From the NCBI GenBank assembly GCA_963666515.2, contig OY762897.2:1312001-1376000 (forward strand): a DNA stretch of 64,000 nt, written 5' to 3'. This stretch comes from Candidatus Binatia bacterium. GTDB lineage: Bacteria; Desulfobacterota; Binatia; UBA9968; JAJDTQ01. Below, one piece after another: positions 19,985-58,232 of the stretch (position 1 is the first letter of the stretch; each line of letters opens with the position of its first letter). The notes below the pieces were generated by a model that was not told where the DNA came from, searched no databases, and was given only the letters and a program-made list of their open reading frames with translations. The position numbers and the translations under genes are program-made.

Positions 19985-21969
19985 CTGAAGTTCTGAGGCC
20001 AAGACAGCGTAAGTGGTTGAATTTAGGGGGAATAGGATTGAGACGGCAGTACGGGTTCTGACTACACGGGGAGTTTGAGGTGGAGGAGTTCCAAGGCGAG
20101 GCGTTGGAGGTCGGTGGGGAGGGTGAGTTGTTGGAAGGTCAGCTTTGAGCCTTGGAGTTGAAGGGTATTGCGGGTGAGGGTGGCCAAGTGGCGGAGCAGA
20201 CCGCGGAAGTGGTGCACGGGTTGCCCCTGTGGGGTTCGGCGGGTGGCGGCTTTGCGCTCGGAGCTGTGGGAGGGCACGCTGGGGCTGACGGGGGAGGGGC
20301 GGCGGCGAGCGGCGTCCTGGGGGTCGTCTTCGGCGAACAAGAGTGGAGCCCAGGCTCGCCGCATGTGCCACTCGACGTAGTAGGCGAGCATGCACAGGAA
20401 GACGTGGGCGCGCACGCGCTGGGACAGGCGGTGGTGGATCGGGCGCACGTGGAGGTCCACGGTCTTGAGGCATCGGAAGGCGCGCTCGACTGCGGCGAGG
20501 CGTTTATAGGCGCTGACGGTGGAAGCGGCATCGAGGAGGGGCTCAGGGACGGAGGTGCGGATGACGTAGAGGCCGTCGAGGCGGGCCTCTTGAGCGATGG
20601 CGTCGGATTTGCGCTGATAGCGGAACGAGGACTCGGTGACGGTCATGTCGAAGTGCTTGGCCATCTTGAAGCGGCCCAACACCCGGCCCACCCGCAGTGC
20701 GATGGCGCTCTCACCGCGAAGCGGTCGTTTGGGGCGTTGGGTGGCCCGGACGATCTTGTCCAGTTCCTGCTCGGTGGCGTCCAGCAGGGCTTGGCGTTTG
20801 CGCCGACGCTCCTGGCGCAGCAGGGGGTTGAGGCAGGCGATGAGGCGTTCGCCGGGGAAGTCTGGATGAGCGATTTCAGCCAGGTCGGTGTGGTCGAACA
20901 GGGACGACTGCAAGGGGCCTTGGTCTTGGGCGAGCTTGGCGACGGCATCGTTGCGTAGTGCACTGATCCAGTCCAGACCCTCCACCGGGCGCAGTTCCTC
21001 GTCGATGCGCGCACTGGTCAACATTCCCCGATCGCCGACGAACACCACACGTTCGAGCCCGAAGCGCTCGCGGACCTTGTGGATCTGGTCCGCCAAAGTG
21101 CTCGGGTCAGCGGTGTTGCCCTCGTAGACCTCCACCGCCACCGGACAGCCGTCGGCGTTGCACAGTAACCCGTAGACGATCTGCAGCTTGCCTTTCTTGC
21201 CGTCCCGCGAGTAGCCGATGCGCCCCAGCGGGCAGCGCCGCCCTTCGAGATAGCTCGAAGTCACGTCGTAGAGCACCAGCGTGCCGTGGTGGAGATGGCG
21301 CTTGGCCAGACTGCGTTCGATGCGCCCCTGACGCTCCCCTAGCCAGTCCATGGCCTCATACAACTCTTCGGCCTGCACCGCCTCAAGGCCGAGTTCCTCG
21401 CCCAGGGTGGACGTCGCACTCTCGGCATCCAACGCCCGCGCCGTGGCCAGCTTCGAGTCCGGACACAGCACCCGGGACACGATCAAGGCCACACTACGGT
21501 CGCGTTGGACGCTGTGCCGAGAGTCCAGCAGCCGCTCCAGCCCCAGCGTCTTGACCGTGCCCAGCACCGCAGCCACGTGTCCATGGGGACGAGAGCGCAA
21601 CACTTGCAATGCCTCCTCGGCCGGCACCAGGGTCTTGCCGCCGAGTGCGAGGCGCACCAGTTCCACCACCGAATCGGGCAGGTGGGAGAGGTTGCCGACG
21701 GTTTCGTTTTTGACCTTGCCGTTTTCGCGGTAGGAGCGCCTGAGCAGGTGGGTGGTGTAGACTCGGTCTTTGTATCGACGCGTGGTAGTAACGACGTGTA
21801 CGGCGGCCTTGCGTCTTGGCATACATGGGATTGTAGCACAATCACCGAATCAGTCAAGCCTATTTAGTGACTACATGTTACGCCTGAAATCTGCCCTTGA
21901 ATCTCCAAATGTCTATCCAATACAATGAGTTAGAGGCTGTCAGGCCGGAATCCGGCCCCAGAACTTCAG
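19985..21969 (-). mobile_element. IS1634-family insertion sequence, complete
   Basis: Terminal IRs CTGAAGTTCTG(A/G)GGCC (15/16 match); flanking 6-bp duplication TCTAAA at 19979-19984 and 21970-21975. Confidence 0.93.
20062..21822 (-). CDS. IS1634 family DDE transposase
   Basis: LYDVTSSY.EG, GYSRD.K, V.GN..D, VGDRGM, VERAFR.LK...L..RPI.H, H+FLC.LAY. Confidence 0.95.
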   Translation of the reverse strand: MPRRKAAVHVVTTTRRYKDRVYTTHLLRRSYRENGKVKNETVGNLSHLPDSVVELVRLALGGKTLVPAEEALQVLRSRPHGHVAAVLGTVKTLGLERLLDSRHSVQRDRSVALIVSRVLCPDSKLATARALDAESATSTLGEELGLEAVQAEELYEAMDWLGERQGRIERSLAKRHLHHGTLVLYDVTSSYLEGRRCPLGRIGYSRDGKKGKLQIVYGLLCNADGCPVAVEVYEGNTADPSTLADQIHKVRERFGLERVVFVGDRGMLTSARIDEELRPVEGLDWISALRNDAVAKLAQDQGPLQSSLFDHTDLAEIAHPDFPGERLIACLNPLLRQERRRKRQALLDATEQELDKIVRATQRPKRPLRGESAIALRVGRVLGRFKMAKHFDMTVTESSFRYQRKSDAIAQEARLDGLYVIRTSVPEPLLDAASTVSAYKRLAAVERAFRCLKTVDLHVRPIHHRLSQRVRAHVFLCMLAYYVEWHMRRAWAPLLFAEDDPQDAARRRPSPVSPSVPSHSSERKAATRRTPQGQPVHHFRGLLRHLATLTRNTLQLQGSKLTFQQLTLPTDLQRLALELLHLKLPV

Positions 21970-29320: not shown

Positions 29321-29438
29321 CGGCGCATGCTTCCAGCTACTTGGACGCCCCTGACAGGCGAAGTGAGGCGCTTCCAGGCATTGCAGATGCGCAATTCAAG
29401 TGATTTATTGGCTCGACAGGGAACGCAGGGAGGTAGAG

Positions 29439-30290
29439 ATGAAGACCAACGGTTATGATCGCAAAGCCGATGATCTGGGCAACGTCGTCGCCCTGGAGCA
29501 CGTCAACGTCACCATACCCGACCAGGCCACCGCAGTGACGTTCTACGTACTCGGGCTCGGGCTGACCCGGGACCCGTACATGAACGTGGGCCTGAACAAC
29601 ATGTGGGTCAACGTCGGCGGCCAGCAGTTCCACCTGCCCACCCGCGGAATACAGAAGATTTCCGGACACATCGGCTTGGTCTTCCCCGATATCGAAACGC
29701 TGAAGAAGCGCCTGGGAACGGTGGAGGGGGAACTCAAGGGGACCCGTTTCAAGTGGCGCGACGCCGGCGACCACGTGGCCGTGACGGGTCCCTGGGGCAA
29801 CCGCTTCCGTTGCCATGCTGCCGGGCCGGAGTTCGGCGACATGACCATCGGCATGCCCTACGTCGAGTTCCTGACCCGGCCGGGCACGGCACAGGCCATC
29901 GGCAAGTTCTACCGTACCGTGCTGCAGGCGCCCGCAACCTACAAGAACGGCAGCGCGACGGTGAAGGTGGGACGCAACCAGAGCCTGATCTTCACCGAGA
30001 CCGACAAGCGGATCCCCCGCTACGACGGCCACCATATCGCCGTCTACATCGCCAACTTCTCCCACGCCCACCAGTTCCTGCTGCGCCGGGACCTGATCCA
30101 GGAAGAGAGCAACGCTCACCAGTACCGCTTCAGGGACATCGTCGATCCGGGCACCGGCGAAAAGGTCTTTGCGCTGGAGCACGAGGTGCGCAGCCTCTAC
30201 CACCCCATGCTCAACCGCACCATGGTCAACCGCAACGCCGAGCAGACCCAGCGCGGCTACGTGCCGGGGCGCGACGTGTACTACCCCTGA
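29439..30290 (+). CDS. VOC/glyoxalase-like two-domain protein
   Basis: LEHVN...PD...A..FY..LG, QFHLP, GPWGN, HHIA+Y; SD GGAGG. Confidence 0.75.
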   Translation: MKTNGYDRKADDLGNVVALEHVNVTIPDQATAVTFYVLGLGLTRDPYMNVGLNNMWVNVGGQQFHLPTRGIQKISGHIGLVFPDIETLKKRLGTVEGELKGTRFKWRDAGDHVAVTGPWGNRFRCHAAGPEFGDMTIGMPYVEFLTRPGTAQAIGKFYRTVLQAPATYKNGSATVKVGRNQSLIFTETDKRIPRYDGHHIAVYIANFSHAHQFLLRRDLIQEESNAHQYRFRDIVDPGTGEKVFALEHEVRSLYHPMLNRTMVNRNAEQTQRGYVPGRDVYYP

Positions 30291-30314
30291 CCCGGAATCA
30301 GGTCCGGGGTGACG
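30287..30314 (-). repeat. REP-like element (family A variant) at convergent stops
   Basis: CGTCACCCCGGACCTGATTCCGGGTCA on the minus strand, overlapping the ligD 3' end. Confidence 0.6.
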
Positions 30315-32862
30315 GGCCGTTTTTGCCGAACAGTTCCTCCAGGCGGGCCAGGGCGTCGGGCATGTCCACGCCCGGCGCGTCCACCACGGGCAGCAGCGGA
30401 TCCGCCTTCTTCTCGAAACGCCTGACCGCGGTCTTCAGCGTAAACCGGCCGGGGTCCAGCTTGGCGGTGACCTCGGACCAGCGGAGCGGGCAGGATACCG
30501 GCGCGCCCGGCAGGGGCCGCACCGAGAAGGGCGCGGCAATGGTGCGGCCGTAGCCGTTCTGGCCGAAGTCTATGTAGACCTTGCCTTCCCGGGCGTGGAG
30601 CGGACGCGCCACCGTGGCGATGTCCGGCACTCTCTGCTCCGCGGCCAGCGCCAGCAGGCGCGCGAAGGTGCGGCACTGTTCGTAGAGGTAGTGCCGTCCC
30701 ATGGGCACCAGGATGTGGAGGCCGGTGGCGCCGGAGGTCTTGATGCCGGCGGTCACCTCCAACTCCGTGAGGATGGCCTTGAGGGTTCTGGCCACGCGCA
30801 CGACGTGGGCGAAGGGCGCCCCCTTGGGGTCGAGGTCCAGCACCAGCCAGTCGGGGCGCTCCAGGGTGTCCAGCCGGCTGGCCCAGATGTGCAGCGGGAT
30901 GGCGCCGAGGTTGGCGACGTAGCGCAGGTTTTGGGCGTCGTTGACGATGAAGTAGTCGATGTCCCGGTCGGCGTCCTTCGAGTAGATACGCCGGGTCGCC
31001 ACCCAGTCGGGAACGTAGTCCGGCGCGTCCTTCTGGAAGAAGGCCTTGCCGTGGATGCCGTCGGGGAACCGCGTCAGCACTAGCGGACGATCCCGGAGAT
31101 AGGGCAGCAGCAGCGGCGCGACGGCCTCGTAGTAGTCGATCAGGTCGCTCTTGGTGTAGCCGTCGTCGGGCCAGAACACCTTGTCCGGATTGGTCACCGC
31201 GAACGTCGGGGCGGCCGGGCGCCGCGCGGAGGCCGGCGGGAAGGGCGCATCGTCTTCCTGGACCGCCACAGGGGTTTCGTTGTGGCGCCCCTGGGACACG
31301 AATTCTTCGCGGCGGCATTCCTCCGGCGCCTTGTCGTCCCGCAGGCCCAGGAAAGACGGGTGCCGCAGGCCGCCGTCGGCGGTCCATCCGCTGAACTCCA
31401 CTTCGCAGACGAGCCGGGGCTCCACCCAGTGATGCTCCCTTCCGGCCGGCGTCCCTTTGGCGAACGGGGAATCCTCCCGCGCCAGGGCGACGAGCCGTTC
31501 GTGAACGGAACCGAGGGTCTCGCGGTCGAAACCCGTGCCCACCTTCGACACGTAGACCAGTTCCCGGCCGCGGTAGAGCCCGAGATGGAGCGCTCCGAAA
31601 CAGGGCCGCGAGCCGCCGGGGCGGGTGTATCCGCCGATGACGAACTCCTGGTGCGGCCGGCACTTGAATTTCAACCACTCGCGAGTGCGGCCCGCGGCGT
31701 AACGGCTGTCGGCGCGCTTGCCGATGATCCCCTCCAGGCGATTCTCCCAGGCGGCGCGGTAGAAGTCCTCACCGCGTTCGGGAACGTGCTCGCAATACTG
31801 GACCACGCCCCGGTGCGGCAGGAAGAGGGAAAGGTACTCCTTTCGCCGCGTCAGGGGCAGCGTGCGGAGGTCCCGCGCACCGGCTTCGAGGCAGTCGAAG
31901 AAGACTCCGCGGACCGGTACCGCCCGCGCCGTCCGCTCGATGTCGAAGCGGTCCGTCAGGTGCATCCGAGGCTGGAGCCGCTGGAAGCTCGGGCGCCCCG
32001 TCTCGTCCATGGCCACGATCTCGCCGTCGATGAGGAAGCGCGACGGTGCGGTCTTGCTCAGCGCGTGGACGATCTCCGGATACCGCCGGGTGATGTCGTC
32101 TCCCTTGCGCCCCAGAAGCGTGACGGCATCGTCGCGCCGCCGGGCGAGCACGCGCACGCCGTCGTACTTGATCTCGAAGAGCCAGTCCGCGTCGGAGAAG
32201 GGGACGCCGCCGGGCGACGCCAGCATCGGCGCCGGCTTCCGGCGCGACACGGAGGCCGGCGGGGCCTTGAGCCGTTTCAGGGCCTTGTCGAGCACCGCTG
32301 TCCGCGAGCCCGGGTCGCCGCGCTCGGACACGGTGAGGCCGGACAGGATGGAGCCGGGAAAGGCCTCCGCCGGCTCGGGCTCCTCCCCGCGGCCGTCCTT
32401 GCTGAACAGCAGCCACTCCCTGGCGCGGCCTCCCATACGCACGAGCATCCACACGCCGCGCAGCTTGTAGCCCTGCAGCTCGATCTCCAGCGTGCCCTCG
32501 TCGAGCTGCCGCAGCGGGTCCTCGGCGTGGAGCAGCCGGTAGCGGCCCTGGTCCCACAGGATGACCGCGCCGGCGCCGTAGTTGTCCCTGGGGATCACGC
32601 CCTCGAAGTCGGCGTACTCGATGGGGTGGTCCTCCACGTGCACCGCCAGCCGTTTTTCGTAGGAGCGGACCGACGGGCCCTTGGGAACGGCCCAGCTCTT
32701 GAGGACGCCGCCCATCTCCAGCCGGAGGTCGTAGTGGAGCGCGCGGGCGGCGTGCTGTTGCACCACGAAGAGGCCTCCGGCGGAGGACGCCTGGCCTCCG
32801 AACGCTTCCGGGGTCCGCTCGGGATCGCGCTTGCGCCGGTACTCACCCAGCGGGGCGGACAT
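30298..32862 (-). CDS. ligD: DNA ligase D (phosphoesterase-ligase-polymerase)
   Basis: PE: H.A..LHYD.RLE..GVLKSWAVPKG; ligase: EIKYDGVR, DGEIV, EG++.K; Pol: RFPDG....FFQK, DLDP, KTSG..GLH. Confidence 0.97.
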   Translation of the reverse strand: MSAPLGEYRRKRDPERTPEAFGGQASSAGGLFVVQQHAARALHYDLRLEMGGVLKSWAVPKGPSVRSYEKRLAVHVEDHPIEYADFEGVIPRDNYGAGAVILWDQGRYRLLHAEDPLRQLDEGTLEIELQGYKLRGVWMLVRMGGRAREWLLFSKDGRGEEPEPAEAFPGSILSGLTVSERGDPGSRTAVLDKALKRLKAPPASVSRRKPAPMLASPGGVPFSDADWLFEIKYDGVRVLARRRDDAVTLLGRKGDDITRRYPEIVHALSKTAPSRFLIDGEIVAMDETGRPSFQRLQPRMHLTDRFDIERTARAVPVRGVFFDCLEAGARDLRTLPLTRRKEYLSLFLPHRGVVQYCEHVPERGEDFYRAAWENRLEGIIGKRADSRYAAGRTREWLKFKCRPHQEFVIGGYTRPGGSRPCFGALHLGLYRGRELVYVSKVGTGFDRETLGSVHERLVALAREDSPFAKGTPAGREHHWVEPRLVCEVEFSGWTADGGLRHPSFLGLRDDKAPEECRREEFVSQGRHNETPVAVQEDDAPFPPASARRPAAPTFAVTNPDKVFWPDDGYTKSDLIDYYEAVAPLLLPYLRDRPLVLTRFPDGIHGKAFFQKDAPDYVPDWVATRRIYSKDADRDIDYFIVNDAQNLRYVANLGAIPLHIWASRLDTLERPDWLVLDLDPKGAPFAHVVRVARTLKAILTELEVTAGIKTSGATGLHILVPMGRHYLYEQCRTFARLLALAAEQRVPDIATVARPLHAREGKVYIDFGQNGYGRTIAAPFSVRPLPGAPVSCPLRWSEVTAKLDPGRFTLKTAVRRFEKKADPLLPVVDAPGVDMPDALARLEELFGKNGPSPRT

Positions 32863-32874
32863 GGCAACCTGTTG

Positions 32875-32900
32875 ACAAGTTCATAACTTGTAGAATTCTA
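32875..32900. promoter_or_regulatory. Palindromic operator-like sites in the ligD/ku divergent promoter
   Basis: ACAAGTT-CAT-AACTTGT (32875-32891) overlapping TTGACA, abutted by TAGAATTCTA (32891-32900). Confidence 0.55.
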
Positions 32901-32948
32901 AAGGCATTTCATGCTAGAGTGCAACGGATCGAATCTGGAGGGACCATC

Positions 32949-34058
32949 ATGGCAGCACGCGCCATCAGTTCCGGGACCATTTCCTTCGGCCTGGTTTCCA
33001 TCCCCATCAAGCTCTACACGGCAGCGTCATCGGGCGGCATCACGTTCAATTTCCTGCACAACCGATGCGGGTCGCGCATGAAGCAGCAACAGTTCTGCCC
33101 CGTGTGCGACGAGGTGGTGCAGCGCTCCGACCTGGTCCGCGGCTACGAGTTCGCCAAGAACCAGTACGTACGTTTCGAGAACGACGAGTTGAAGGCCCTG
33201 GAAGAGGAGACTTCCAAGGTCATCGAGCTGGAGGAGTTCGTGCCGCTGGAGAAGGTCGATCCGGTCTACTTCGAGAAGACCTACTACCTCGGCCCGGACA
33301 AGGGCGGCGAGAAGGCGTACCGGCTGCTGGCGGACGCCATGACCGAGTCCAACCGGGTGGGTCTGGCCAAGTACGTCATGCGGGGCAAGGAGGGGCTCGT
33401 GCTGATCCGCGCGGTCCAGGGCGGTCTCATGCTCCACACCATGTACTACGCCGACGAGGTGCGGGATTTCGACGACATCGACCGGGGCCAGACCATCCAG
33501 CTCAAGGAAGGCGAGCTGGACTTGGCGGTCCGCCTCATCGACGAGCTGGTGAGCAAGGAGTTCCACCCGGAGAACTACCACGACGAGTACAAGGCACGCG
33601 TCCTGCAACTGGTGGAGCAGAAGGTGGAGGGGAAGGAAGTGACGGCCCTGGAGCCGCAGGCGCGCCAGAGCCAGGTGGTGGACCTCATGGAAGCCCTCAA
33701 GGCCAGCCTGGAGAAGCACGACGGCGCGGCCGGGGCGAAGCCCAAGGCCCTGCGCGCTGCCGCGCGCACGCGCAAGGCGCCGGCCGGGGAAGCGGAGGTC
33801 ACCTTCGAGGAATTCCAGGCCGCGGTGAACGAGTCCGGCCTGGAAGTGAGCGCCGCGGAGCTCAAGAAGAGCTACAACGGCCTCGCCTCGCTCGGCAAAC
33901 GCAAGAAGCTGGCCTCGGCCGACGTGCGCGGCAAGGTCGTGAACCTGCGCAAGGATCTGGAAGTGATCCGCTCCGATCCCGAGCTGTTCGGCAACGCGCC
34001 GAAGAAGCTCAAGGCCGCCCGCATCCCCCTCACCGCCCGGGACTGGGAACGCTACTGA
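32949..34058 (+). CDS. ku: Ku protein with Zn-ribbon-type bridge and an extra C-terminal domain
   Basis: G.ISFGLV.IP+KLY.A, YFEK.YYL.P, Y.LL..AM, DLM.ALKASL; HxxC...CxxC; 89 extra residues after the basic linker. Confidence 0.95.
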   Translation: MAARAISSGTISFGLVSIPIKLYTAASSGGITFNFLHNRCGSRMKQQQFCPVCDEVVQRSDLVRGYEFAKNQYVRFENDELKALEEETSKVIELEEFVPLEKVDPVYFEKTYYLGPDKGGEKAYRLLADAMTESNRVGLAKYVMRGKEGLVLIRAVQGGLMLHTMYYADEVRDFDDIDRGQTIQLKEGELDLAVRLIDELVSKEFHPENYHDEYKARVLQLVEQKVEGKEVTALEPQARQSQVVDLMEALKASLEKHDGAAGAKPKALRAAARTRKAPAGEAEVTFEEFQAAVNESGLEVSAAELKKSYNGLASLGKRKKLASADVRGKVVNLRKDLEVIRSDPELFGNAPKKLKAARIPLTARDWERY

Positions 34059-34086
34059 GCCGGGTCTGCCCGATACCAACGGCGAC

Positions 34087-34884
34087 ATGGCACGGGACGC
34101 CACGGACAGGGCGCACCGGGTGATGGAAGAAGCCCGGCGTTTGCTGGATACATGCGGTGTCGAGCGCCCGCCCGTGGACTTGGTGCGCATCGCCCACCAT
34201 CTGGGCATCCGGCGCATCCGGGAGTTGGACGTTCGTCTGGACGGGCAACTCGTGGAACTGGGCGACGGCGGCTACGAGGTCATCCTCAGCCGGAACGCCC
34301 CTCACACCCGCCGGCGCTTCACCCTGGCCCATGAGATCGCTCACATCCTCGCGGCTTCGCCCGGCGACGACTCCATGAGCTGCGGCGACGCCGCCACCGA
34401 GGAGCTGTGCAACCGCGTCGCCGCCGAGCTGTTGATTCCGGGCCGCTTCATTGCCGACGAGGCGCCAGGGGACATGGACGTGGCCGCCTTCCGGCGATTG
34501 GCCACCCGGTTCCAATGCTCCCTCGAAGCGGCGGCTTGGCGCGTCCTCAACATGGGAAAGGTGGCCGGCGCTCTGCTGATCTGGCGCATGCAGGACGGCG
34601 GCAAGCTGGAACTGTCCGCGTCGCCGCGCACCTTCGGCTTCGATTCGCCGTTCGAGAACGGCGCCGTCCTTGATGGCGCCATGCCGTTCGTGCGACAGTT
34701 GATGGCGCGGAGCGAAGGTCCGGTCACCTGCGGTGAGGACCCGGGCGGAAGAATCTACACGGGCGACTATGTCCGCCTGAACAAGGTGTTGCTCATGTAC
34801 CTGAGATCCGAAGGAGATCCCCCGGCCTCGAAGACGAGCCGCCGCCCGTCAGGCGCGCCGGGCCAGGGCGAGTTGTTCTCATAG
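34087..34884 (+). CDS. ImmA/IrrE family metallo-endopeptidase
   Basis: RRRFTLAHEIAH (HExxH), E..CN..AAELL.P, LA..F..S.EA...R HTH, further C-terminal domain. Confidence 0.92.
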   Translation: MARDATDRAHRVMEEARRLLDTCGVERPPVDLVRIAHHLGIRRIRELDVRLDGQLVELGDGGYEVILSRNAPHTRRRFTLAHEIAHILAASPGDDSMSCGDAATEELCNRVAAELLIPGRFIADEAPGDMDVAAFRRLATRFQCSLEAAAWRVLNMGKVAGALLIWRMQDGGKLELSASPRTFGFDSPFENGAVLDGAMPFVRQLMARSEGPVTCGEDPGGRIYTGDYVRLNKVLLMYLRSEGDPPASKTSRRPSGAPGQGELFS

Positions 34885-35451: not shown

Positions 35452-36213
35452 ATGATGGACTACAACCAGGCGCTGGAACGGCTGGCCGAAGGCTATGGCA
35501 AGGCGGAAAGGGACGTCGTCACGGCCTATTTCAGCGCGCCGCGCACACCCGAGGAGCACATCCACTGGCTCAAGGCCCAGGCCTTCAAGGAATACTCGGC
35601 CATCCAGCCGCTGATCCATGCCCTCGACAAGCTCTACTCCCAGCTTGACCGCCAGGTGGACCGCCACGACTTCGAGGAACTCTGTCACAAGCTCGGCGAC
35701 GAGATGAGCCACGCCAGGCTGATCATGGATTTCCTGGAGGAGTTGACCGGCAAGCGGCTGACGCAGAAGGACCTCACCTGGTTGCCGGAGGACCGCAAGC
35801 TCGCCGAGGTGAGGGCGCGCTACTCCCGCAGCTACGCCGGGCTGCTGCACGGCTCCGAGCGCATCACCACCAGTGAGATACAGCGGCGCGACGAGATGCT
35901 GGAGCGGGCCGCCATCACCCTGACCGAGGGCGGCGGGGGCGCGCTCTACGAGGTCTGCCGCCACCTGAAAGGCAACCGCATCAACCGCAGGATCGCGTCC
36001 ATCTTCGGGCGCATCCACCGGGACGAGACCAGGCACAGCGACGCCAACGAGCTGGCCGCGCTGGTCAAGACCCGGAAGGACTACGACCGCGCCCGGCGCA
36101 TCATCGCCAACGTTTCGTCCCAGCGTCTTCGGATGCGCAACGAGCAGTTCGGCTTTCCGCTGAGCCGGAGCGAGCTTCGATCGCTGGAACGGGAGTGCAC
36201 CGCCGCGGCTTAG
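35452..36213 (+). CDS. Ferritin-like diiron domain protein
   Basis: Paired E...DExxH motifs (KE, DEMSH; TE, DETRH). Confidence 0.7.
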   Translation: MMDYNQALERLAEGYGKAERDVVTAYFSAPRTPEEHIHWLKAQAFKEYSAIQPLIHALDKLYSQLDRQVDRHDFEELCHKLGDEMSHARLIMDFLEELTGKRLTQKDLTWLPEDRKLAEVRARYSRSYAGLLHGSERITTSEIQRRDEMLERAAITLTEGGGGALYEVCRHLKGNRINRRIASIFGRIHRDETRHSDANELAALVKTRKDYDRARRIIANVSSQRLRMRNEQFGFPLSRSELRSLERECTAAA

Positions 36214-48316: not shown

Positions 48317-50764
48317 TTGGATAAGAAAAGCCTCAGCGAGCGCGATATCTGCACCAAGTTCATCACTCCGGCTCTGCGCAGGGCCGGTTGGGACGAGATG
48401 GTGCAAATCCGTGAAGAGGTCAGCTTCACCAAGGGCCGCATCATCGTGCGCGGGAAGCTGGTCAGCCGGGGCAGGGGCAAGCGCGCCGACTACATCCTCT
48501 ATTACAAGCCCAACCTTCCCATCGCGCTGATCGAAGCCAAGGACAATACCCATGCGGTCGGCGACGGCATACAGCAGGCCCTCGACTACGCCGACACGCT
48601 GAACATTCCCTTCGTGTTTTCCTCAAATGGCGACGGCTTCGTCTTCCACGACCGAACCGGCGTCGTCGCAAGGGAGACAACCCTGGCCCTCGACGCCTTC
48701 CCGTCGCCAGACGACCTGTGGGTGCGTTATCGGACCTGGAAGGGCCTGACGTCCGATGCCGAAGAAATCGTCCTTCAGGACTATTTCGACGACGGAAGCG
48801 GCAAGACACCACGCTACTATCAGGTCAACGCTATCAACGCCGCCATCGAGGCCATCGCCAAGGGTCGCGACCGCATCCTGCTCGTTATGGCAACGGGAAC
48901 GGGCAAGACCTACACTGCCTTTCAGATCATCTGGCGGCTGTGGAAGGCGGGTCGAAAGAAGCGCATCCTGTTCCTGGCGGACCGCAACGTGCTCGTCGAT
49001 CAGACCATGGTTAACGACTTCCGGCCCTTTGGTCCGGCAATGGCCAAGCTCTCGACCAACGCCAAGACCATAGAACGCGAGGACGGCTCTTCGGAGCATG
49101 CAACTGCCCCCCTCAACAGGACGCGCCGCATCGACACCGCCTACGAGATCTATCTCGGTCTCTATCAGGCGATCACCGGACTGGAGGAACAGCAGAAGAT
49201 TTTCCGGGAGTTTTCGCCCACATTCTTCGACTTGATCGTAGTCGACGAGTGTCACCGTGGCAGCGCTGCCGAGGATTCGGCCTGGCGGGAAATTCTTGAG
49301 TATTTCTCTACCGCCACGCAGATCGGCCTAACCGCCACCCCCAGGGAGACCCGCTACGTTTCCAACATCCATTACTTTGGCGAACCCGTCTACTCCTATT
49401 CCCTGAAACAAGGTATCCGCGACGGCTTCCTTGCCCCCTACAAGGTTATCAAGGTTCACATAGATCGTGACGTGGAAGGCTACCGCCCGGAAAAGGGTCA
49501 GCTTGACCGGGAGGGGCGGGAGGTCGAAGACCGTATCTACAACGTCAAGGACTTCGACCGGACGCTGGTGCTGGACGACCGAACCCAGCTCGTCGCCCGC
49601 AGGGTCACCGAGTTTCTGAAAGAGAGCGGCGACCGTTTCCAGAAAGCGATCATCTTCTGCGTTGATCAGGAGCATGCCAGTCGCATGAGACAGGCCCTCA
49701 TCAACGAAAACGGCGACTTGGTAGACCAGAACCACCGTTACGTCATGCGCATCACCGGCGTCGACACCGAAGGTCAGGCACAATTGGGCAACTTCATCGA
49801 CCCGGAATCCAGATATCCCGTATTGGTCACCACCTCACGGCTTCTCTCGACTGGAGTCGACGCTCAGACCTGTCGTCTCATTGTGCTCGACCGAACGGTC
49901 GGCTCGATGACCGAATTCAAGCAGATCGTCGGCCGCGGCACCCGTGTGCACGAGGACACCCGTAAATTTTACTTCACCTTGATGGATTTCCGTGGCGCTA
50001 CGAGTCATTTCGCCGATCCCGATTTCGACGGTGAGCCGGTTCAGATATATGAGCCAAGCGCGGACGACCCCATGACCCCGCCGGATGACGTGCTACCCCC
50101 GGGTGACGGCGACGATCCCATACCGCCGAAACCCGGTGAGGACGAGACCATTATCTGCGTAACCCCCGATGCCCCTCATTCACCTACAGAGGGTGGTACG
50201 TACAAAGTGTACGTGGATGACATCGATGTCGCCATAGTCGCTGATCGAGTGGAATATCTGGATGAGAACGGCAAGCTGATCACCGAATCCTTACGCGACT
50301 TCACGAAGAAGACGCTGAAGAGACACTTCGCCAGTCTCAACGATTTCCTCAGACGCTGGAACACCGCAGAGCGCAAGCAGGCCATTATCGAGGAGTTGGA
50401 GGCCGAGGGTCTTCCTCTCGGCGCTATCGCCGTGGAACTGGGCAAGGATCTCGATTCTTTCGATCTCATTTGCCATATCGCCTTCGATGCCAAGCCTCTG
50501 ACCCGCCGCGAGCGCGCCGAGAACGTCAAGAAGCGGGATGTGTTTCACAAATATGGCGACCAGGCCCGCGCCGTACTCGACGCACTTCTCGCCAAGTATG
50601 CCGACGAGGGCATGTTCAATCTCGAGGACGTGTCCGTGCTTCGCATCCCGCCCTTCACCGAGCTCGGCACCCCGGTTCAGTTGATCAAAGCCTTCGGCGG
50701 CCGGGATGGATTCATTGAGGCCGTCCACGACCTGCAATCCGCGCTGTACCAGGAGACTGCTTGA
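48317..50764 (+). CDS. hsdR: Type I restriction enzyme R subunit (EcoAI/EcoEI-like)
   Basis: ADY.L....+IEAK nuclease, MATGTGKT, DECHRGSA, GLTATP, QI+GRGTR. Confidence 0.95.
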   Translation: MDKKSLSERDICTKFITPALRRAGWDEMVQIREEVSFTKGRIIVRGKLVSRGRGKRADYILYYKPNLPIALIEAKDNTHAVGDGIQQALDYADTLNIPFVFSSNGDGFVFHDRTGVVARETTLALDAFPSPDDLWVRYRTWKGLTSDAEEIVLQDYFDDGSGKTPRYYQVNAINAAIEAIAKGRDRILLVMATGTGKTYTAFQIIWRLWKAGRKKRILFLADRNVLVDQTMVNDFRPFGPAMAKLSTNAKTIEREDGSSEHATAPLNRTRRIDTAYEIYLGLYQAITGLEEQQKIFREFSPTFFDLIVVDECHRGSAAEDSAWREILEYFSTATQIGLTATPRETRYVSNIHYFGEPVYSYSLKQGIRDGFLAPYKVIKVHIDRDVEGYRPEKGQLDREGREVEDRIYNVKDFDRTLVLDDRTQLVARRVTEFLKESGDRFQKAIIFCVDQEHASRMRQALINENGDLVDQNHRYVMRITGVDTEGQAQLGNFIDPESRYPVLVTTSRLLSTGVDAQTCRLIVLDRTVGSMTEFKQIVGRGTRVHEDTRKFYFTLMDFRGATSHFADPDFDGEPVQIYEPSADDPMTPPDDVLPPGDGDDPIPPKPGEDETIICVTPDAPHSPTEGGTYKVYVDDIDVAIVADRVEYLDENGKLITESLRDFTKKTLKRHFASLNDFLRRWNTAERKQAIIEELEAEGLPLGAIAVELGKDLDSFDLICHIAFDAKPLTRRERAENVKKRDVFHKYGDQARAVLDALLAKYADEGMFNLEDVSVLRIPPFTELGTPVQLIKAFGGRDGFIEAVHDLQSALYQETA

Positions 50765-50768
50765 CCCC

Positions 50769-52226
50769 ATGTCCGTCCGCACGACCGTCAAATCCATCCA
50801 GAACATCATGCGCCAGGACATCGGCGTCGACGGCGATGCCCAGCGCATCAGTCAGTTGTGCTGGATGTTCTTTCTCAAGATCATCGACGATCAGGACCAA
50901 GAACTGGAGTTGATGCAGGCCAACTATACGTCGCCGATCGCCGAGCGCTTCCAATGGCGCGCTTGGGCAGCCGATCCCGAGGGCATCACCGGAGAGGATC
51001 TGCTGGCTTTCATCAACAACGATCTGTTCCCGGCCCTGAAACAGGCCCGGATCACCGGCCAGCCCAGCGACCGCCACCGGGTCGTACGCGACGTGTTCGA
51101 GGACGCCTACAACTATATGAAATCCGGCCAGTTGATGCGTCAAGTGGTCAACAAGATCAACGACATCGACTTCAACGACCTTACATCGCGCCAGCACTTC
51201 GGCGACATCTATGAACATATCCTCAACGACTTGCAATCCGCGGGCAATGCGGGTGAATACTACACGCCCCGTGCGGTCACAGCCTTCATGGTCGACCGCA
51301 TCGACCCCAAACCTGGCGAGAGCCTTTTCGATCCTGCCTGTGGCACTGGCGGTTTTCTGACCTGCGCGTTGCGCCACATGCGCCAGCGTTACGTCAAGCG
51401 GCCCTCTGATGAACGGAAGATGCAAGCCGCACTACGCGCCGTGGAGAAAAAGCAGCTTCCGCACATGCTGTGCGTCACCAATATGCTGCTTCACGGTATC
51501 GAAGAACCGAGCTTCGTTCGCCACGACAACACGCTGGCGCGGCCCTACATCGGCTGGGAACGGAAAGATCGGGTGGATATCGTGCTGACCAATCCCCCCT
51601 TTGGAGGAAAGGAAGAAGACGGCATCGAAAGCAACTTTCCGCAGCACTTTCGCACTAAAGAGACCGCCGACCTTTTTCTGGCCCTGATCGTTCGCCTGTT
51701 GAAGCCGGGCGGACGCGCTGCCGTCGTGCTGCCCGACGGTTCATTGTTCGGCGAGGGTGTCAAGACGCGCCTCAAGGAACATCTGATGGAGGAGTGCAAC
51801 CTCCATACCATCGTCCGCCTGCCCAACTCCGTGTTCAAGCCCTATGCCTCCATCGGCACCAACCTGCTGTTCTTCGAGAAGGGTGAACCGACCCGGGATA
51901 TCTGGTTCTACGAACACCGTGTGCCTGAAGGCCAGAAAGCTTATTCCATGACCAAGCCGATCCGGCTGGAGCATTTCCAACCCTGCATCGACTGGTGGGG
52001 CGGAACGGCCCGCAACGGCCGCAAGGACACGGACCACGCATGGAAGATGACCGCTGAGGAAGTCAAGCAGCGCGGCTACAACCTCGATCTCAGGAATCCG
52101 CACACGACCGAAGACGACCACGGCGACCCGGAAGAGCTGCTGGCCAAACTGGCCGACGCAGAGGCAGAAACGGCGTCCTTGCGGGAACAGTTGAAGGTCA
52201 TTCTGGCGGAGGCGCTGACCCCATGA
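50769..52226 (+). CDS. hsdM: Type I N6-adenine methyltransferase M subunit
   Basis: GE+YTPR, DPACGTGGFL, NPPFGG. Confidence 0.96.
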   Translation: MSVRTTVKSIQNIMRQDIGVDGDAQRISQLCWMFFLKIIDDQDQELELMQANYTSPIAERFQWRAWAADPEGITGEDLLAFINNDLFPALKQARITGQPSDRHRVVRDVFEDAYNYMKSGQLMRQVVNKINDIDFNDLTSRQHFGDIYEHILNDLQSAGNAGEYYTPRAVTAFMVDRIDPKPGESLFDPACGTGGFLTCALRHMRQRYVKRPSDERKMQAALRAVEKKQLPHMLCVTNMLLHGIEEPSFVRHDNTLARPYIGWERKDRVDIVLTNPPFGGKEEDGIESNFPQHFRTKETADLFLALIVRLLKPGGRAAVVLPDGSLFGEGVKTRLKEHLMEECNLHTIVRLPNSVFKPYASIGTNLLFFEKGEPTRDIWFYEHRVPEGQKAYSMTKPIRLEHFQPCIDWWGGTARNGRKDTDHAWKMTAEEVKQRGYNLDLRNPHTTEDDHGDPEELLAKLADAEAETASLREQLKVILAEALTP

Positions 52227-53113
52227 AACCCAACCATCATTCGCGTGGAAGCGTGAATCCGTTCTCTGGCGAACAATTACTCACCCACTTCGATCGCATC
52301 ATTGAGGCCCCGGCTGCCATTTCGCGTTTACGCCGGTTCATTCTCGACTTGGCCGTGCGTGGCAGGTTGGTGGAATCGGACCCGAAGGACGAGCCTGTGC
52401 CAAGGCTATTGAAGCGAATTGCGGCGGAGAAGGCACGACTGGTGCAAGCGGGGGAAATAAAACAACAAAAAGAGATTCCGCCACTGGTGAAGAACGATTT
52501 GCCATTTTTATTGCCTGCAAACTGGAGGTGGAGCCAAATTGCGGAAGTCGGACTGCTCAGCCCAAGGAACGAAGCGCCGGATGATCTTGAAGCTTCCTTT
52601 GTCCCAATGCCCTTGATTGCGGCCGACTATGGTGTGAGTTGTAGCCACGAGATTCGGCAATGGGGGAGGATCAAAAAAGGCTATACGCACTTCGCAGAGG
52701 GCGACGTTGCTTTGGCGAAGATCACGCCTTGTTTTCAGAACGGAAAATCGACGGTCTTTCGAAACCTTACAGGTGGCCTGGGGAGCGGCACCACCGAGTT
52801 GCATATTGTCCGGCCCTTGTTCGTCGATCCCAACTTCATTCTTCTTTTCTTGAAATGCCCTCATTTCATCGAGAGTGGTATCCCGAAGATGACTGGCACC
52901 GCCGGCCAAAAGCGAGTGCCTGCGGAATACTTCGCTTATTCACCGTTCCCGCTCCCACCCTTTGCGGAACAGCGACGCATCGTCGCCAAAGTCGATGAAC
53001 TCATGGTACTGTGTGACCGGCTTGAGGCGAGCCTTGTAGCCCGTGATGCAATGCGGGAGTTGTTGGTGGAAGCGATGTTGCACAATGCTTTGAATCCAAA
53101 CGGAGGCCACTGA
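52223..53113 (+). CDS. hsdS: Type I specificity subunit, half-size (one TRD)
   Basis: LR..IL.LAVRG.L, P..LP..W.W, AKITPCF.NGK, PLPP..EQ.RIV.K+.EL...CD.LE; 296 aa. Confidence 0.88.
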   Translation: MKPNHHSRGSVNPFSGEQLLTHFDRIIEAPAAISRLRRFILDLAVRGRLVESDPKDEPVPRLLKRIAAEKARLVQAGEIKQQKEIPPLVKNDLPFLLPANWRWSQIAEVGLLSPRNEAPDDLEASFVPMPLIAADYGVSCSHEIRQWGRIKKGYTHFAEGDVALAKITPCFQNGKSTVFRNLTGGLGSGTTELHIVRPLFVDPNFILLFLKCPHFIESGIPKMTGTAGQKRVPAEYFAYSPFPLPPFAEQRRIVAKVDELMVLCDRLEASLVARDAMRELLVEAMLHNALNPNGGH

Positions 53114-53179
53114 GCACTGACGAGAGCCTTGCCCAAGATTCCGAACAAGATCGCGATCTAGGAGCGTGCTTGGTTTCGT

Positions 53180-56100
53180 TCAGTGCTCCAGCCTCTTTCT
53201 GACTTCCATTTCTGTGTCTTCCCTTTTCGCATCGCGGTCGTAGTCGGCCGCGATACTTTCAAGGACAGCGCTGACATAGGGGTAGTCGAAGGCATGCAGC
53301 TTTGCCCAGCCTCGATACTTTGCGGCAAGCTCACGTTCCTGCGCACCTCCCTCATTCAATTCGCGAAAATGTCCGCCGCGCCCGTTGAAGACACCAATGT
53401 TGAAGCCTATGCCGATCTGCTGGGAAGCAAATCTCTCCATCGCCTCACAGACCGGAAGGCACGGCCAAGCGCCGTCCTCTTCGGCAGGAGCCTTAGACAG
53501 AAGCTCACCGATCTTTTTATCACCGATATCGACTCGCCCATGCTTGGCGCAGAGTTGTCGCACTTTGGTAATCCACTTCAGCAGCGTTTCGGTCTCGATC
53601 TTCCCGTCCGGTCTAGTCCCTGGAATGCGCCCAATTCGGAACAGAAGACGATGGGCTGCAGATCTCAGAAGAGCGCGATGCCCTTGGTCTTCGATTTGCC
53701 ATCCGGGAGGGTCCTGACCATCGTCTTTACGTCTGTACACAATCCCCAGTACTTGGACGAAAAGGGTGGGAGTCTCGGCAATCTGCCGCTCAAGATTAGG
53801 AATTCCGTGCTCGCTATACTCAAGCGCCGCAATGAACAAGAACTCAAGCTGCGCCATCTCGTCCCTGCTAACGCCAGGGCGGCCATCGAGTGAATCCAAT
53901 GCCTCCGAAATGTAGTAGGAGTCAAGGCTGTGCCAATCCGCAGGTTCGGCATCCACGGTAGCTACGGCGAGGAGAAGCCGTTTCAGTCGCGAGGTCTCGA
54001 TCCGCGGCCAGTGCAGAGACAGAGCGACGGCGCGAAATGCATCGTGGGGTCGCTTTGCTTCAAGCAGACGGTCAATGAGCTCAATCAACTCTGCCTCGTT
54101 GTGGCGGTTCCAGGATGGGAAAACTTCCTGCCAATATCGATCTTGGATTTCTTGGTCGTATCGGTCGAGCAAGCGCCACGTGTTCTGATTGAACGGCGCG
54201 CACCGGAACAACCGCACGATCTGGTCAGCGTCTCTACCTTCGGCAACGGCCAAGAGAACTGCGCTCCGTTCTTCGTCGCACAGGGATCTCAAAAATCCGT
54301 TCACACAGCCGTCAACTTTCTTCCCCACGTCGCCGGTAGTGGAAAGGCATTGTCGCAAGAAATTGGTCCGCTCATTCGCGGTCGCTATGTTCGGTCCTAG
54401 GGAACCACCGATCGTATCGGGTGTCCCACTACGAGACAGCAGTCCCATCACAGCTTCAAACCCACCTTCCGCCCAAATCTCCTTGATCGCCGCGGCTCGG
54501 AGCTTGTGGATTCTTTCTTCGTGTTTAGAAGGATCGAGCCTGCCATCCTCCATATCGTCGTCGGAAAACTCGATCCAGCCGTTGGCAAACAGCCAAGCAT
54601 TCCGGAGAACAGGGTCACGCGGTTGCAATTTCTCGTACGCCATACGCGCCCGGTTCTTTGTCGCGTCACTCAGAGCGTGAATCTGACCTCGCATCGTAAA
54701 CATAAAGAGGCGAATCCGCTCGCCAAGGCTAGCCCTAGTATCGTCGTCGGTCTCTGAATCCGCCCAAGTGTCAATCAAGTCCCAAACCAGAGTCTGGCTT
54801 TCCTCGGATATTGCCGGGAGCCGCTCGACGAGGTCGCCGAGCGTCTTCGGATCGTGTTTTTGCCACGCGAGTGCAAGGTCGAGCGCTTTATGCGTGAATT
54901 CATGGAATTCGCTCTGCGTCACCGACCGGCCCGCGCCTGAAGCGTCGCTCCGCCAACGTGGCCGGTAACTAGGCGAGGCCATTTGGGGACCGGTGTGCAA
55001 CTGGTCGATACAAACCTGCCAACCAACGTCCGGGAGCCGCTTGGTCAGGACCTCAAGGGCCTGCACCCGTTCTCCAAGCGAAGCGGCGGTTTGAGGTAGC
55101 CACGACCGATAAGTCGCAAGAATACTGGAGATGGGCTTGTTGACCCAGTTGTCTTCGATAACGGTTCTCGACAACTGCGCGAGGATCAAGCTCACACGCC
55201 CGAGGTGTTGCCACGCGAGGCATTCCAGTGCCCATAGCAGCCCTGTTCGTGTTGGTGAGCTGAACGCGCCGCCGTCTACTGGTTTCAAGAGACCGAGTAC
55301 CGCCGGATGGACCTGTCGCAAGTCATCCTCAAGTAAATTCAAGAACTCGCCGGGTGCCGCTTCTGCATACTTTGGCAGGTCTTTGTCGTGCGAGAGCAGT
55401 TTGTCCAGGGACAGCGGCGTAAGGAGCTTCCGCACTAGCGACGAGACATGAGCCTCGACGTCGATGCCAAGCCGCTCCCGGAATAGATTGCTGCCGTGGA
55501 TGGAGAGGATGACGAGGGTTTCGCAGATACCTTCGCGCAATGCGGCAGAGTGTTTGCGCACCTTGCCATAGAACCCTGCAGCCCACCGTTCGTCTTCCGG
55601 CAGATCAAGCGCCGGATCGTTCTCGGAAAGTACATATTCAGAGAGGAAAAAGAAGTCCTGCAGGTCTTTTTCGGTCATTTGCCAACTGATGGCGAACAGA
55701 GTGTCGATTTTGGATGCGACGCCGCGATATGGTCCCACGGACCATACAGGGCAGTCGTCAAATTTCAACAACCGGGCTACACACCTTTCAATGTCGGGAT
55801 AGCTCGTATCTGCGAGGGTAGAGAGAATTTCGCAATCCGCGTTGGAGTTGGTATGCCATGCACCCACCAGAGCCACGGGGATCAGGCTCTTTGCAATCTC
55901 AATGTCTCCAGCCCATTGGGGTTTCCTGATCGCATGGATCGCCGAGAGGTTTCGACGTAGGATGGTCGGTGAGCGGCCCGACACTCTTGCCAGCCGGTCT
56001 GCTTGATCTTCATCAATACCCATCGCTACGAGCGCCTTCCCGAACTCGCTCTGGTTCAGCAGGTCAAGGGCTATATCTGGATTTGAATCAATGGCGTTTC

Positions 56101-57256: not shown

Positions 57257-57500
57257 GATGGGGTCAGCCTCCAAGTTTCTTTTTCATTAGCATAGTGTAT
57301 TGCGTAGCGCAACACAGATCGAATCTCGCACAGCTACAGAGGGCAGAACCCACCCGTAGCTCTTCGATGAGATCAAAGGGGCCACCGAGAAGGAGTCTGG
57401 CAAATTTGAGTTGACGGTACGCGGAAAACAGGGCTGGGAGTAGGGCAGAACCAAGGGTCTCATACCCGTTCTCGCGCCTTTGTTCAGAGCGAGTCAAGGA

Positions 57501-57917
57501 CTACGTCACTTCAGTGCCGTAGGTGTCGAACGTCTCGATAGTCGCTTGGTGACCGGGAGCTGCGGCCAACCGGGCATCACAGGTAATCAAGGGTGCGGGA
57601 AGGGACTCTGCGAGAGCCAAGTAAACGGCATCATAGGCGGTGACATTGTGACGAAGCGCCCAGATGCGCGGCAAAAAGGGGTAGTGCGGATAACGAGTAA
57701 TCCGGAAATCATTGACCTCCGTCAAGGCTTCCTCTCCTTGCTGCGGCGTCAACTGGCCGATGGACACGTACCGCCGGAGGACGTGGGTTATCTCAAGATC
57801 GATAAGGTGCGGCGCATGCAGGGACTCGGAAGCCTCCACGAGCCGTTTCTCAATGTCCGACGCACCGGGCGTGTTCAGGAGCAGCGCCAAGAGGGCCGAG
57901 GCGTCAACGACGATCAA
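57501..57917 (-). CDS. vapC: PIN-domain toxin
   Basis: MIVVDASA, AP.L...E, N+T.YDA.Y+ALAE, L+T.D..L; TTG overlaps the antitoxin stop. Confidence 0.92.
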   Translation of the reverse strand: MIVVDASALLALLLNTPGASDIEKRLVEASESLHAPHLIDLEITHVLRRYVSIGQLTPQQGEEALTEVNDFRITRYPHYPFLPRIWALRHNVTAYDAVYLALAESLPAPLITCDARLAAAPGHQATIETFDTYGTEVT

Positions 57918-58145
57918 GGCTTGTCCCGTTCTTCCCGGATAATTTGCGCTGGGGTGAGGGTTGGACGAAAAGGCGCTCGACCCCGGAGCCTCCGGCAAAG
58001 CTCTTCCAGGGTCGGATACTCGGCATGACGTCCGAGTTCTGTGATCAAATAGTCCGAAAGCGACGTCCCGGCCAGCGCGGCTCTCGACTTGAGAATCCGA
58101 TGCAGATCATCAGGAACATTTCGTAGCTGAATCATTTTGGACATG
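57914..58145 (-). CDS. Ribbon-helix-helix (FitA-like) antitoxin
   Basis: IQ+RNVPD..H..LK.RAA..G.SLS.YL. Confidence 0.9.
58116..58145 (+). repeat. 30-bp perfect direct repeat, copy 1 (first 30 nt of the antitoxin gene)
   Basis: ACATTTCGTAGCTGAATCATTTTGGACATG-containing block is identical at 59684-59713. Confidence 0.93.
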
Positions 58146-58150
58146 GAGCA

Positions 58151-58179
58151 AACATACTTGCATGTTTCCCACATGTCAA
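58151..58179 (-). promoter_or_regulatory. Putative leaderless promoter/operator of the TA operon
   Basis: TTGACA-17 bp-TATGTT immediately before the ATG; repeated CATG half-sites. Confidence 0.65.
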
Positions 58180-58232
58180 ATTCAAGAATTGTTATCCTTG
58201 CAAATTGTCCAAATTGTGGATAATTTGCAGGG

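Follow-up and report, generated by a model that had tools for sequence, protein, structure and literature searches.

An M78-family peptidase gene paired with a long-tailed ku gene, and a possible proteolytic switch on bacterial end joining

An NHEJ (non-homologous end-joining) locus in the genome of a Candidatus Binatia bacterium (assembly GCA_963666515.2, contig OY762897.2) holds, next to the genes for Ku and DNA ligase D (LigD), a gene for a zinc peptidase of the M78 (ImmA/IrrE/CapP) family. We studied this locus in a window of 64,000 nucleotides, by which we mean the whole stretch of DNA analysed (positions 1312001-1376000 of the contig; genome 4.67 Mb, 65.8% G+C, labelled G000), and in related genomes. 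The peptidase gene proved to be a constant downstream neighbour of ku, and the Ku protein of every such pair carries an extra domain at its C-terminus. We therefore put forward, tentatively, a reading that may quite possibly be correct: a protease of CapP/IrrE type, gated by single-stranded DNA (ssDNA) and dedicated to end joining, cuts the tail or linker of Ku.

Conservation of the ku-peptidase pair

The original prediction, made from the letters of the window, had ligD and ku diverging over 86 bp and an intact HExxH peptidase gene beginning 28 bp past ku. Both points were confirmed: ligD occupies 30298-32862 on the reverse strand and ku 32949-34058 on the forward strand, with the gap at 32863-32948, and the peptidase gene follows at 34087-34884 on the forward strand after a gap at 34059-34086, its HEIAH motif present. 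A gene for 3-hydroxyanthranilate dioxygenase (3-HAO) starts 26 bp after the peptidase gene. The reading frames of these four genes are backed by codon-position G+C, and a search of the two gaps from ku to the 3-HAO gene found no terminator-like site.

We surveyed 123 genomes of the order, draws of 401 genomes each from the class and the phylum, and 24 congeners drawn from the source genus (g1). The peptidase family was present in 25 of the 123 order genomes, namely G000, 20 of the 27 other g1 genomes, all three genomes of a second genus (g9; this count, like loci L138, L158 and L195, rests partly on the unpublished genome G458) and the single genome, G495, of a third (g274); it was not found in the remaining 24 genera of the order. 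The class draw yielded 24 of 401, all from g1 and g9, the phylum draw 1 of 401, which was the source genome itself, and the order around an Acidobacteriota genome 0 of 301. In a profile scan of genome contigs, four of the 80 loci kept were true members of the family and the rest were generic M78 genes. Two members carry depositor labels from elsewhere, 'Acidoferrales' (P0074) and 'Deltaproteobacteria' (P0070); as their contigs are G036:C56 and G495:C129, both of this same order, we make no claim across phyla.

Loss of the ku-peptidase adjacency in related genomes had been named beforehand as grounds for abandoning the prediction, and in our gene-neighbourhood survey the adjacency held at every locus of the peptidase family whose upstream DNA is present. 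The gene immediately before the peptidase gene, on the same strand, is ku in all 18 loci outside the source genome that have an intact orthologue, in loci L135-L140 and in metagenome loci L141-L147 (L147 holds the 3' end of ku only, and L145 may duplicate L138), with peptidase identities of 42-84% across L135-L140 and the seven metagenome loci. Further pairs were assigned to shared contigs on the strength of equal lengths, for example P0066 with P0182 (a 4,288-bp contig) and P0074 with P0185. Within g1, 17 of the 24 congeners have a peptidase orthologue (66-84% identity), and at all 17 loci ligD diverges from ku and the peptidase gene follows ku. Genus g9 shows the same layout, and in g9 and g274 alike the peptidase gene is the last before a convergent gene. 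The pair is kept across three genera at 42-47% peptidase identity despite different flanking genes, always on one strand and with gaps of 9-28 bp. The predicted three-gene module has to be amended in one respect: the ku-peptidase unit is constant, but ligD is variable, with none found within 8 kb of the pair in G495.

Presence and absence of the two genes also coincide. Exactly the same 17 of the 24 congeners have Ku, and the other seven lack both Ku and the peptidase. In the Ku-less congeners G011, G012 and G021, a gene for a 296-aa protein and the 3-HAO gene, which flank the trio in the source genome, abut, with ligD, ku and the peptidase gene absent; G011 retains a broken 3' remnant of the peptidase gene. 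This comparison had no synteny to use in G005 and no 3-HAO orthologue in G010 and G023, and G014 was left out. Because the three genes were lost together from between flanks that now abut, we conclude that they act as one cassette to which the peptidase gene belongs. We considered and rejected the view that the peptidase gene is part of the 3-HAO/amidohydrolase operon downstream, since that operon stays when the trio is gone and is absent downstream of the pair in g9 and g274.

The peptidase

The peptidase gene has the following features.

34087-34884, forward strand: M78 (ImmA/IrrE/CapP-type) zinc peptidase, 265 aa, built of a peptidase domain, a helical middle, a GAF-like domain and a disordered tail (PF06114, AlphaFold2 (AF2) model, Foldseek).
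34330-34344, forward strand: HEIAH zinc/catalytic motif, residues 82-86 (H82, E83, H86), with E114 as third ligand (34426-34428).
34345-34398, forward strand: CapP-type 'cysteine switch' loop, from the HExxH helix to the Glu-ligand helix, with C99-G-D101 and C99 at 34381-34383 (profile alignment).
34558-34818, forward strand: GAF-like C-terminal domain, residues ~158-244 (strand and helix pattern of the model; Foldseek).
34819-34881, forward strand: disordered tail, residues 245-265 (predicted local distance difference test score (pLDDT) <50), ending QGELF-S, a Q-x-x-L-(x)-F motif (Q260-F264 at 34864-34878).

The match to PF06114 spans residues 62-152 and, at 57.2 bits (E = 1.8e-15), is well over the cut-off of 22. 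H82, E83, H86 and E114 are invariant in a 27-sequence family alignment whose members are 33-83% identical to the peptidase, and HExxH is found in 91 of 92 family members, the exception being a 168-aa fragment. P0076-P0085 are relatives of the peptidase at 33-38% identity. The AF2 model (pLDDT 86.6; predicted template modelling (TM) score 0.84) is folded over residues 1-244. Foldseek matched it along its full length to the IrrE/PprI structures 3dte, 3dti, 8slm and 8sln (ssDNA-bound) with E = 1e-10 to 5e-10 and TM-scores of 0.56-0.63, and to CapP (7t5t) with E = 4e-8, all over 251-284 columns; 6cyj, a mycobacterial regulator of M78 plus GAF build, was matched with E = 6e-7, and the C-terminal half gave weak partial matches to phytochrome GAF domains. 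The three-part architecture of IrrE and CapP, a peptidase domain, an HTH-like (helix-turn-helix-like) helical centre and a GAF-like C-terminus, is therefore present in the AF2 model and its structural matches, and sequence profiles point the same way (IrrE, E ~1e-12; CapP, E = 4e-9). Judged by its sequence, the peptidase has an intact catalytic site and belongs to the damage-sensing IrrE/CapP type.

Binding of ssDNA by the GAF-like domain or groove has been published for both IrrE and CapP (PMC12828697 and bioRxiv 10.64898/2026.05.16.725639). The first of these sources reports that IrrE binds ssDNA through its GAF-like domain, that ssDNA stimulates cleavage by IrrE, and that it has no such effect on ImmA and Rir, which are bare peptidases (PMC12828697). 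The second describes a loop in CapP between the HExxH motif and the Glu ligand, bearing a Cys and acidic residues, that caps the zinc until ssDNA binds, and an IrrE without this loop (bioRxiv 10.64898/2026.05.16.725639). In our profile alignment the family's 'aCGD' falls over 'QCSD' of the Thauera CapP 7t5t, and two IrrE sequences have no Cys there. The switch-loop Cys is found in 79 of 91 parsed family members, and in 67 of the 91 it is followed by an acidic residue within four positions. The original prediction had called the enzyme IrrE/ImmA-type; its place in the M78 family stands, and the cysteine-switch loop brings it closer to CapP than to IrrE. By analogy, the peptidase is best called CapP-like and is probably latent and opened by ssDNA, which would act between the peptidase and GAF-like domains.

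Within the genus the ratio of nonsynonymous to synonymous substitution rates (dN/dS) is 0.24 for the peptidase and 0.13 for Ku (medians over 153 pairs); purifying selection therefore acts on the peptidase, although it diverges roughly four times as fast as the Ku core (mean distance 0.24 vs 0.06). The Q-x-x-L-(x)-F motif lies within the last 16 residues of 61 of 92 family members and is missing from one subclade; it may resemble clamp-binding or Ku-binding peptides.

Ku and its extra C-terminal domain

The ku gene divides into three parts.

32949-33713, forward strand: Ku core, residues 1-255, the beta-barrel/ring domain plus the 'minimal C-terminus' motif VVDLMEALKASL (PF02735; TIGR02772 over residues 4-254).
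33714-33800, forward strand: linker, residues ~256-284, variable and rich in Ala, Lys, Arg and Pro (length and sequence variation among orthologues).
33801-34058, forward strand: extra C-terminal domain, residues ~285-369 plus the stop codon, helical and without a family (alignments, AF2 model).

Ku is a 369-aa protein read from the ATG at 32949, and its N-terminus, MAARAISSG, is common to all orthologues; a longer GTG start at 32919 was rejected, as the orthologues give it no backing. The core matches PF02735 with E = 3e-51 and TIGR02772 with 303.5 bits against a cut-off of 150; its identity is 85-93% among members of the genus and 56-64% over the whole order. The Ku of the predicted NHEJ locus thus has a genuine Ku core, but it is not an ordinary Ku: in place of the usual short, Lys-rich extended C-terminus, which is absent, it has the linker and then a folded, helical domain, some 85 aa long, whose last residues are the invariant ...KAAR(I/V)PLxxRDWxRY. 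The AF2 model of the tail shows four helices at moderate confidence (pLDDT 74), and the start of the linker is disordered (pLDDT <50 over the first 12 residues of the tail model).

This C-terminus tracks the peptidase. All Ku proteins paired with a peptidase are 365-382 aa long and consist of core, variable linker and ~85-aa domain, and the Ku-fused tail domain (profile E = 1e-42 or better) occurs in exactly the 25 of 123 order genomes that hold the peptidase. Genomes of this order with no peptidase orthologue supplied five Ku proteins; these are 282-285 aa long and end in Lys-rich stretches of the ...KKRAQSAKK type.

The tail domain had no match in Pfam, in PDB sequences or among PDB folds (best Foldseek E = 1.9), and a wide VIA-align structure search returned generic helical bundles only (best Z 5.8). 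A tail-bearing 198-aa protein scored below 0.8 throughout an Atlas feature search, in which integrase SAM-like domains were a lead only. A tail profile run against 1.84 billion representatives gave 42 hits; besides Ku these were ~195-aa proteins, a receiver fusion (P0144), HAD-like fusions (P0145, P0165), a further fusion (P0173) and small proteins that include Ku fragments. The tail domain was absent from all of the generic M78 loci L059-L134, and tblastn searches of plasmids with the tail and with the distant peptidase relative P0078 gave no match.

The ~195-aa family (P0154, P0157, P0164, P0168, P0170; L178-L182) joins an N-terminal domain with ...RLYRDHVIMAFPSFDTA...WAPQADISW... to a copy of the Ku C-terminal arm, made up of a 'VIDxxxALKxSL' motif, a linker and the tail domain. 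From their sequences, these proteins might mimic the Ku arm or compete with it. At one of the loci, L180, a receiver-domain gene lies directly upstream of the gene for the tail protein.

Search for a repressor

That no XRE/HTH gene lies near the peptidase gene, as predicted, was borne out: a Pfam scan of open reading frames (ORFs) of at least 60 aa supported by third-codon-position G+C found no HTH_3/XRE domain in the window from ~20 to 45 kb, that is, within about 10 kb of the locus. The nearest of 43 HTH_3 hits in the whole genome lies at 57068-57214, 22 kb away. Nor was an HTH_3 gene found in three 17-kb neighbourhoods of the other genera (g9, and G495 of g274). The genome has seven PF06114 hits, and of the six besides ours two adjoin an XRE gene and two are fused to an HTH; because four of these six paralogues have an XRE HTH, the partner-less state of our peptidase is unusual within its own genome.

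The ligD/ku intergenic region

32863-32948, no strand: divergent intergenic region between ligD and ku, 86 bp (sequence, and alignment by eye of 18 same-genus regions).

An AT-rich block at about 32882-32925, which includes the 10-bp palindrome TAGAATTCTA (32891-32900), is conserved in the genus, its TAGAATTCTAAAGG stretch being retained in most of the 18 aligned regions and not in g9 (locus L046). The region contains no match to the sigma-70 consensus; TAGAATTCTA may represent overlapping, divergent -10-like boxes, a putative assignment. A perfect 17-bp palindrome, ACAAGTTcatAACTTGT, lies at 32875-32891, over the divergent promoter region. It was rejected as a conserved operator, since it is not kept among the 18 same-genus regions, and from its sequence is probably lineage-specific or due to chance; a copy with two mismatches lies at C1:422361, ~2 kb from another M78 paralogue. 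Both ACAAGTTcatAACTTGT and the TAGAATTCTAAAGG block occur once in the 4.67-Mb genome in a search made without a profile for weaker copies. As the block is unique in the genome, we see no regulon and no autoregulated repressor promoter that shares its sequence.

LigD and the surroundings of the locus

30298-32862, reverse strand: ligD, DNA ligase D, 854 aa, phosphoesterase-ligase-primase/polymerase (PF13298, PF01068, PF04679, PF21686; TIGR02776).

LigD unites phosphoesterase, ATP-dependent ligase and primase-polymerase domains on a single chain, as members of its family do, with Pfam E-values of 3e-86 to 7e-32 and a TIGR02776 score of 557 bits against a cut-off of 373. In the g9 genome G459 (L209, 4745-7247) ligD is split inside the primase-polymerase domain into ORFs of 720 and 171 aa, by a frameshift or an assembly error, and ku and the peptidase gene are intact.

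The cassette is flanked by two conserved genes without Pfam domains, 29400-30290 (296 aa) and 35452-36213 (253 aa), which are retained in congeners that have no ligD-ku-peptidase. Besides the module, Pfam content between ~20 and 45 kb comprises a transposase, oxidoreductases, a NUDIX protein, a TldD/PmbA pair, two proteins without a family and aromatic-catabolism genes. The peptidase gene has ligD, the TldD/PmbA pair and the genes for 3-HAO and an amidohydrolase as neighbours, and no immune operon was found beside it in a check that did not include the PADLOC library.

Some 8 kb upstream of the module is a gene for a DDE transposase (586 aa, 20062-21822, reverse strand). Further downstream, an island of low G+C (56-60%) at 48317-59414 carries type I restriction-modification genes, with HsdR at 48317-50764, HsdM at 50706-52226 and a 296-aa ORF at 52223-53113. 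It also encodes a 1364-aa protein (53180-57274, reverse strand) whose N-terminal XRE HTH, the nearest HTH_3 hit mentioned above, is its sole recognisable domain, and an AAA_14/DUF4143 ATPase (58233-59414). In g9, a UvrA-like paralogue with UvrA_inter and ABC domains (L209, 14418-16952; L211, 82-2901) is 5-6 kb away from the ku-peptidase pair, on the far side of an isc-type iron-sulphur gene group.

Discussion

For the two-gene unit that ku and the peptidase gene form, as a rule next to a divergent ligD, we infer the following course of events. The peptidase would be made together with Ku from one transcript and held latent by its cysteine-switch loop, lying over the zinc. By homology to IrrE and CapP, ssDNA at a broken or resected end would bind in the groove that separates the peptidase domain from the GAF-like domain and open the switch, and the active peptidase would then cut Ku in or beside its extra C-terminal domain. 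The cut would change the work of the Ku C-terminal arm in DNA tethering or bridging and in LigD recruitment, and would thereby either license or end end joining. This arm governs DNA bridging, threading and LigD recruitment, according to two studies of Ku (PMC4889933, PMC9638933). Of the two directions that the switch might take, inactivating or releasing Ku seems slightly more likely than licensing; this is a guess, and we lean to it because ssDNA marks resection.

Taken as a whole, the proposal that end joining is switched by Ku proteolysis, with a latent, ssDNA-opened CapP-like peptidase clipping the Ku tail at broken or resected ends and so releasing or re-programming the ring, is possible if somewhat doubtful. 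We arrive at the Ku tail because the peptidase is of a sensor type, because ku occupies the upstream position of a substrate gene, because the peptidase is never found apart from a long-tailed Ku, because the two are lost jointly, and because no XRE gene lies nearby. Its gene stands behind ku as immA stands behind immR and capP behind capH. In its layout, a folded core joined by a flexible linker to a small C-terminal domain of helices, Ku also resembles DdrO and CapH, which are described as cut in the C-terminal helical domain. A predicted complex of two Ku chains with peptidase residues 4-265 scored 0.02, which is evidence neither way. What survives of the predicted protease-switched module, with Ku or a distant repressor as substrate, is the adjacency, the intact sensor-type peptidase and the absence of a nearby XRE gene; Ku as the substrate is only a proposal.

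Several observations weigh against Ku cleavage. All pairs lie within one GTDB order and may represent a single inherited arrangement, not many independent associations. Peptidase distances correlate with those of the Ku tail (r 0.956) and the Ku core (r 0.957) alike, with partial correlations of 0.32 and 0.35, and so carry no tail-specific signal. The tail domain also ends ~200-aa proteins in 22 peptidase-less genomes of the order at E = 2.3e-4 to 1.1e-16, a count in which G493 and G494 match at E = 5e-5 to 2e-4 over the first two thirds only and G461 and G478 are unpublished, and no M78 or Ku gene was found within 1.5 kb of five such loci. Elsewhere it is fused to a receiver domain and to other proteins. 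Because it occurs in protease-less genomes and in other fusions, the tail is a module that functions in its own right, perhaps in binding DNA or a partner, and has no need of the protease. Furthermore, we know of no characterised M78-family substrate other than XRE-type HTH repressors, and the substrate of IrrE, DdrO, is encoded far from irrE.

These last two points lead to an alternative that we consider unlikely, in which the locus belongs to an unlinked circuit like that of IrrE and DdrO: the peptidase would cut a distant XRE repressor bound at the ligD and ku promoters, and ssDNA or zinc release after damage would induce end joining along with the protease. Known M78 substrates and the unlinked irrE and ddrO of Deinococcus fit this circuit (family knowledge, and PMC12828697); the 43 HTH_3 hits in the genome could supply a repressor, and the AT-rich block with its 10-bp palindrome lies over the likely promoters. 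A repressor gene was nevertheless not seen near the module in any of three genera, the conserved block is single in the genome and is lost in g9, and the 17-bp palindrome is not even conserved within the genus. Moreover, the peptidase gene is gained and lost strictly with ku, which a separate repressor gene would need to follow unseen.

We regard it as very unlikely that the peptidase is instead an ssDNA-switched protease for end cleaning or turnover, one that strips other proteins, for example trapped topoisomerase adducts, LigD or end-bound nucleoid proteins, from DNA ends while its Q-x-x-L-F motif docks on Ku or the sliding clamp. Such an enzyme would account for the ssDNA-sensing architecture, the strict linkage to Ku and the terminal short linear motif that follows a disordered linker in 61 of 92 members. 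It would leave the restriction to long-tailed Ku unexplained, however, and the M78 peptidases known to the field are narrow, site-specific enzymes with one substrate; the subclade without the terminal motif (P0066 with P0182, P0074 with P0185) is, in addition, still paired with a long Ku. Finally, a chance or inherited neighbour with a job unrelated to end joining, for example at a distant mobile element or defence locus, that travelled with ku in one lineage is highly unlikely, for although its confinement to one order implies few independent events and it evolves ~4x faster than the Ku core, the pair persists at 42-47% identity in three genera with different flanks, keeps same-strand gaps of 9-28 bp, is lost as a block and has a peptidase under purifying selection.

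The unit resembles several known systems in part. One is CapP-CapH, in which an ssDNA-activated peptidase and an HTH repressor govern CBASS among other immune operons (Lau et al. 2022; bioRxiv 10.64898/2026.05.16.725639). The peptidase, helical and GAF-like build, the aligned switch Cys and a partner gene directly upstream are shared; here, however, the upstream gene encodes Ku and not a small HTH repressor, no immune operon is adjacent, the protein has an extra disordered tail with Q-x-x-L-F, and the sequence relation is distant (profile E = 4e-9). IrrE/PprI-DdrO, of the radiation and desiccation response of Deinococcus, gives the best sequence and fold matches and shares the three-part build, the theme of DNA damage and a substrate not encoded next door as an XRE gene. 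It differs in that IrrE has no cysteine switch and no linkage to Ku, and is ~20% identical; IrrE also runs its regulon through the RDRM operator, whereas we found no shared operator here. ImmA-ImmR of ICEBs1, with the anti-repressor proteases of phages, likewise has an M78 HExxH peptidase gene directly after the substrate gene, but ImmA is a bare peptidase with no GAF-like domain and no stimulation by ssDNA (PMC12828697), its substrate is an XRE repressor, and its context is a mobile element. Our module lacks the defining feature of both CapP-CapH and ImmA-ImmR, an adjacent gene for an XRE substrate.

On the side of repair, the Ku core and the three-domain LigD pass the family models of canonical NHEJ, the Ku homodimer and LigD of Mycobacterium, Bacillus and Pseudomonas, and the divergent layout is common there; a folded Ku domain of ~85 aa in place of the Lys-rich end, and a third gene, for a protease, set this unit apart. 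In eukaryotes, Ku is taken off DNA by ubiquitylation and p97/VCP, and SPRTN/Wss1 are DNA-dependent metalloproteases. The likeness to either is conceptual only, in that DNA triggers the removal of a ring-shaped or DNA-bound protein, and there is no homology and no ubiquitin system here.

The module appears to be undescribed: in the literature searched we found no paper linking the ImmA/IrrE/CapP family to Ku, LigD or NHEJ, and the words 'peptidase' and 'protease' are absent from an NHEJ survey of 5,973 genomes (PMC7719229). The extra Ku tail is likewise an undescribed module, common to receiver-domain and other proteins. Bacterial end joining is taught as a system of two proteins, Ku and LigD, in which the regulation of Ku, and its removal from repaired or resected DNA, is an open question. 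If Ku cleavage proves true, Ku would be the first substrate of the ImmA/IrrE/CapP family that is not a repressor and would widen the substrate logic of that family, and the locus, a simple three-gene system that can be tested in vitro, would provide a direct post-translational link from the sensing of ssDNA to the control of a repair pathway. Bacteria would then have an answer of their own to how Ku comes off DNA, or to how end joining or recombination is chosen.

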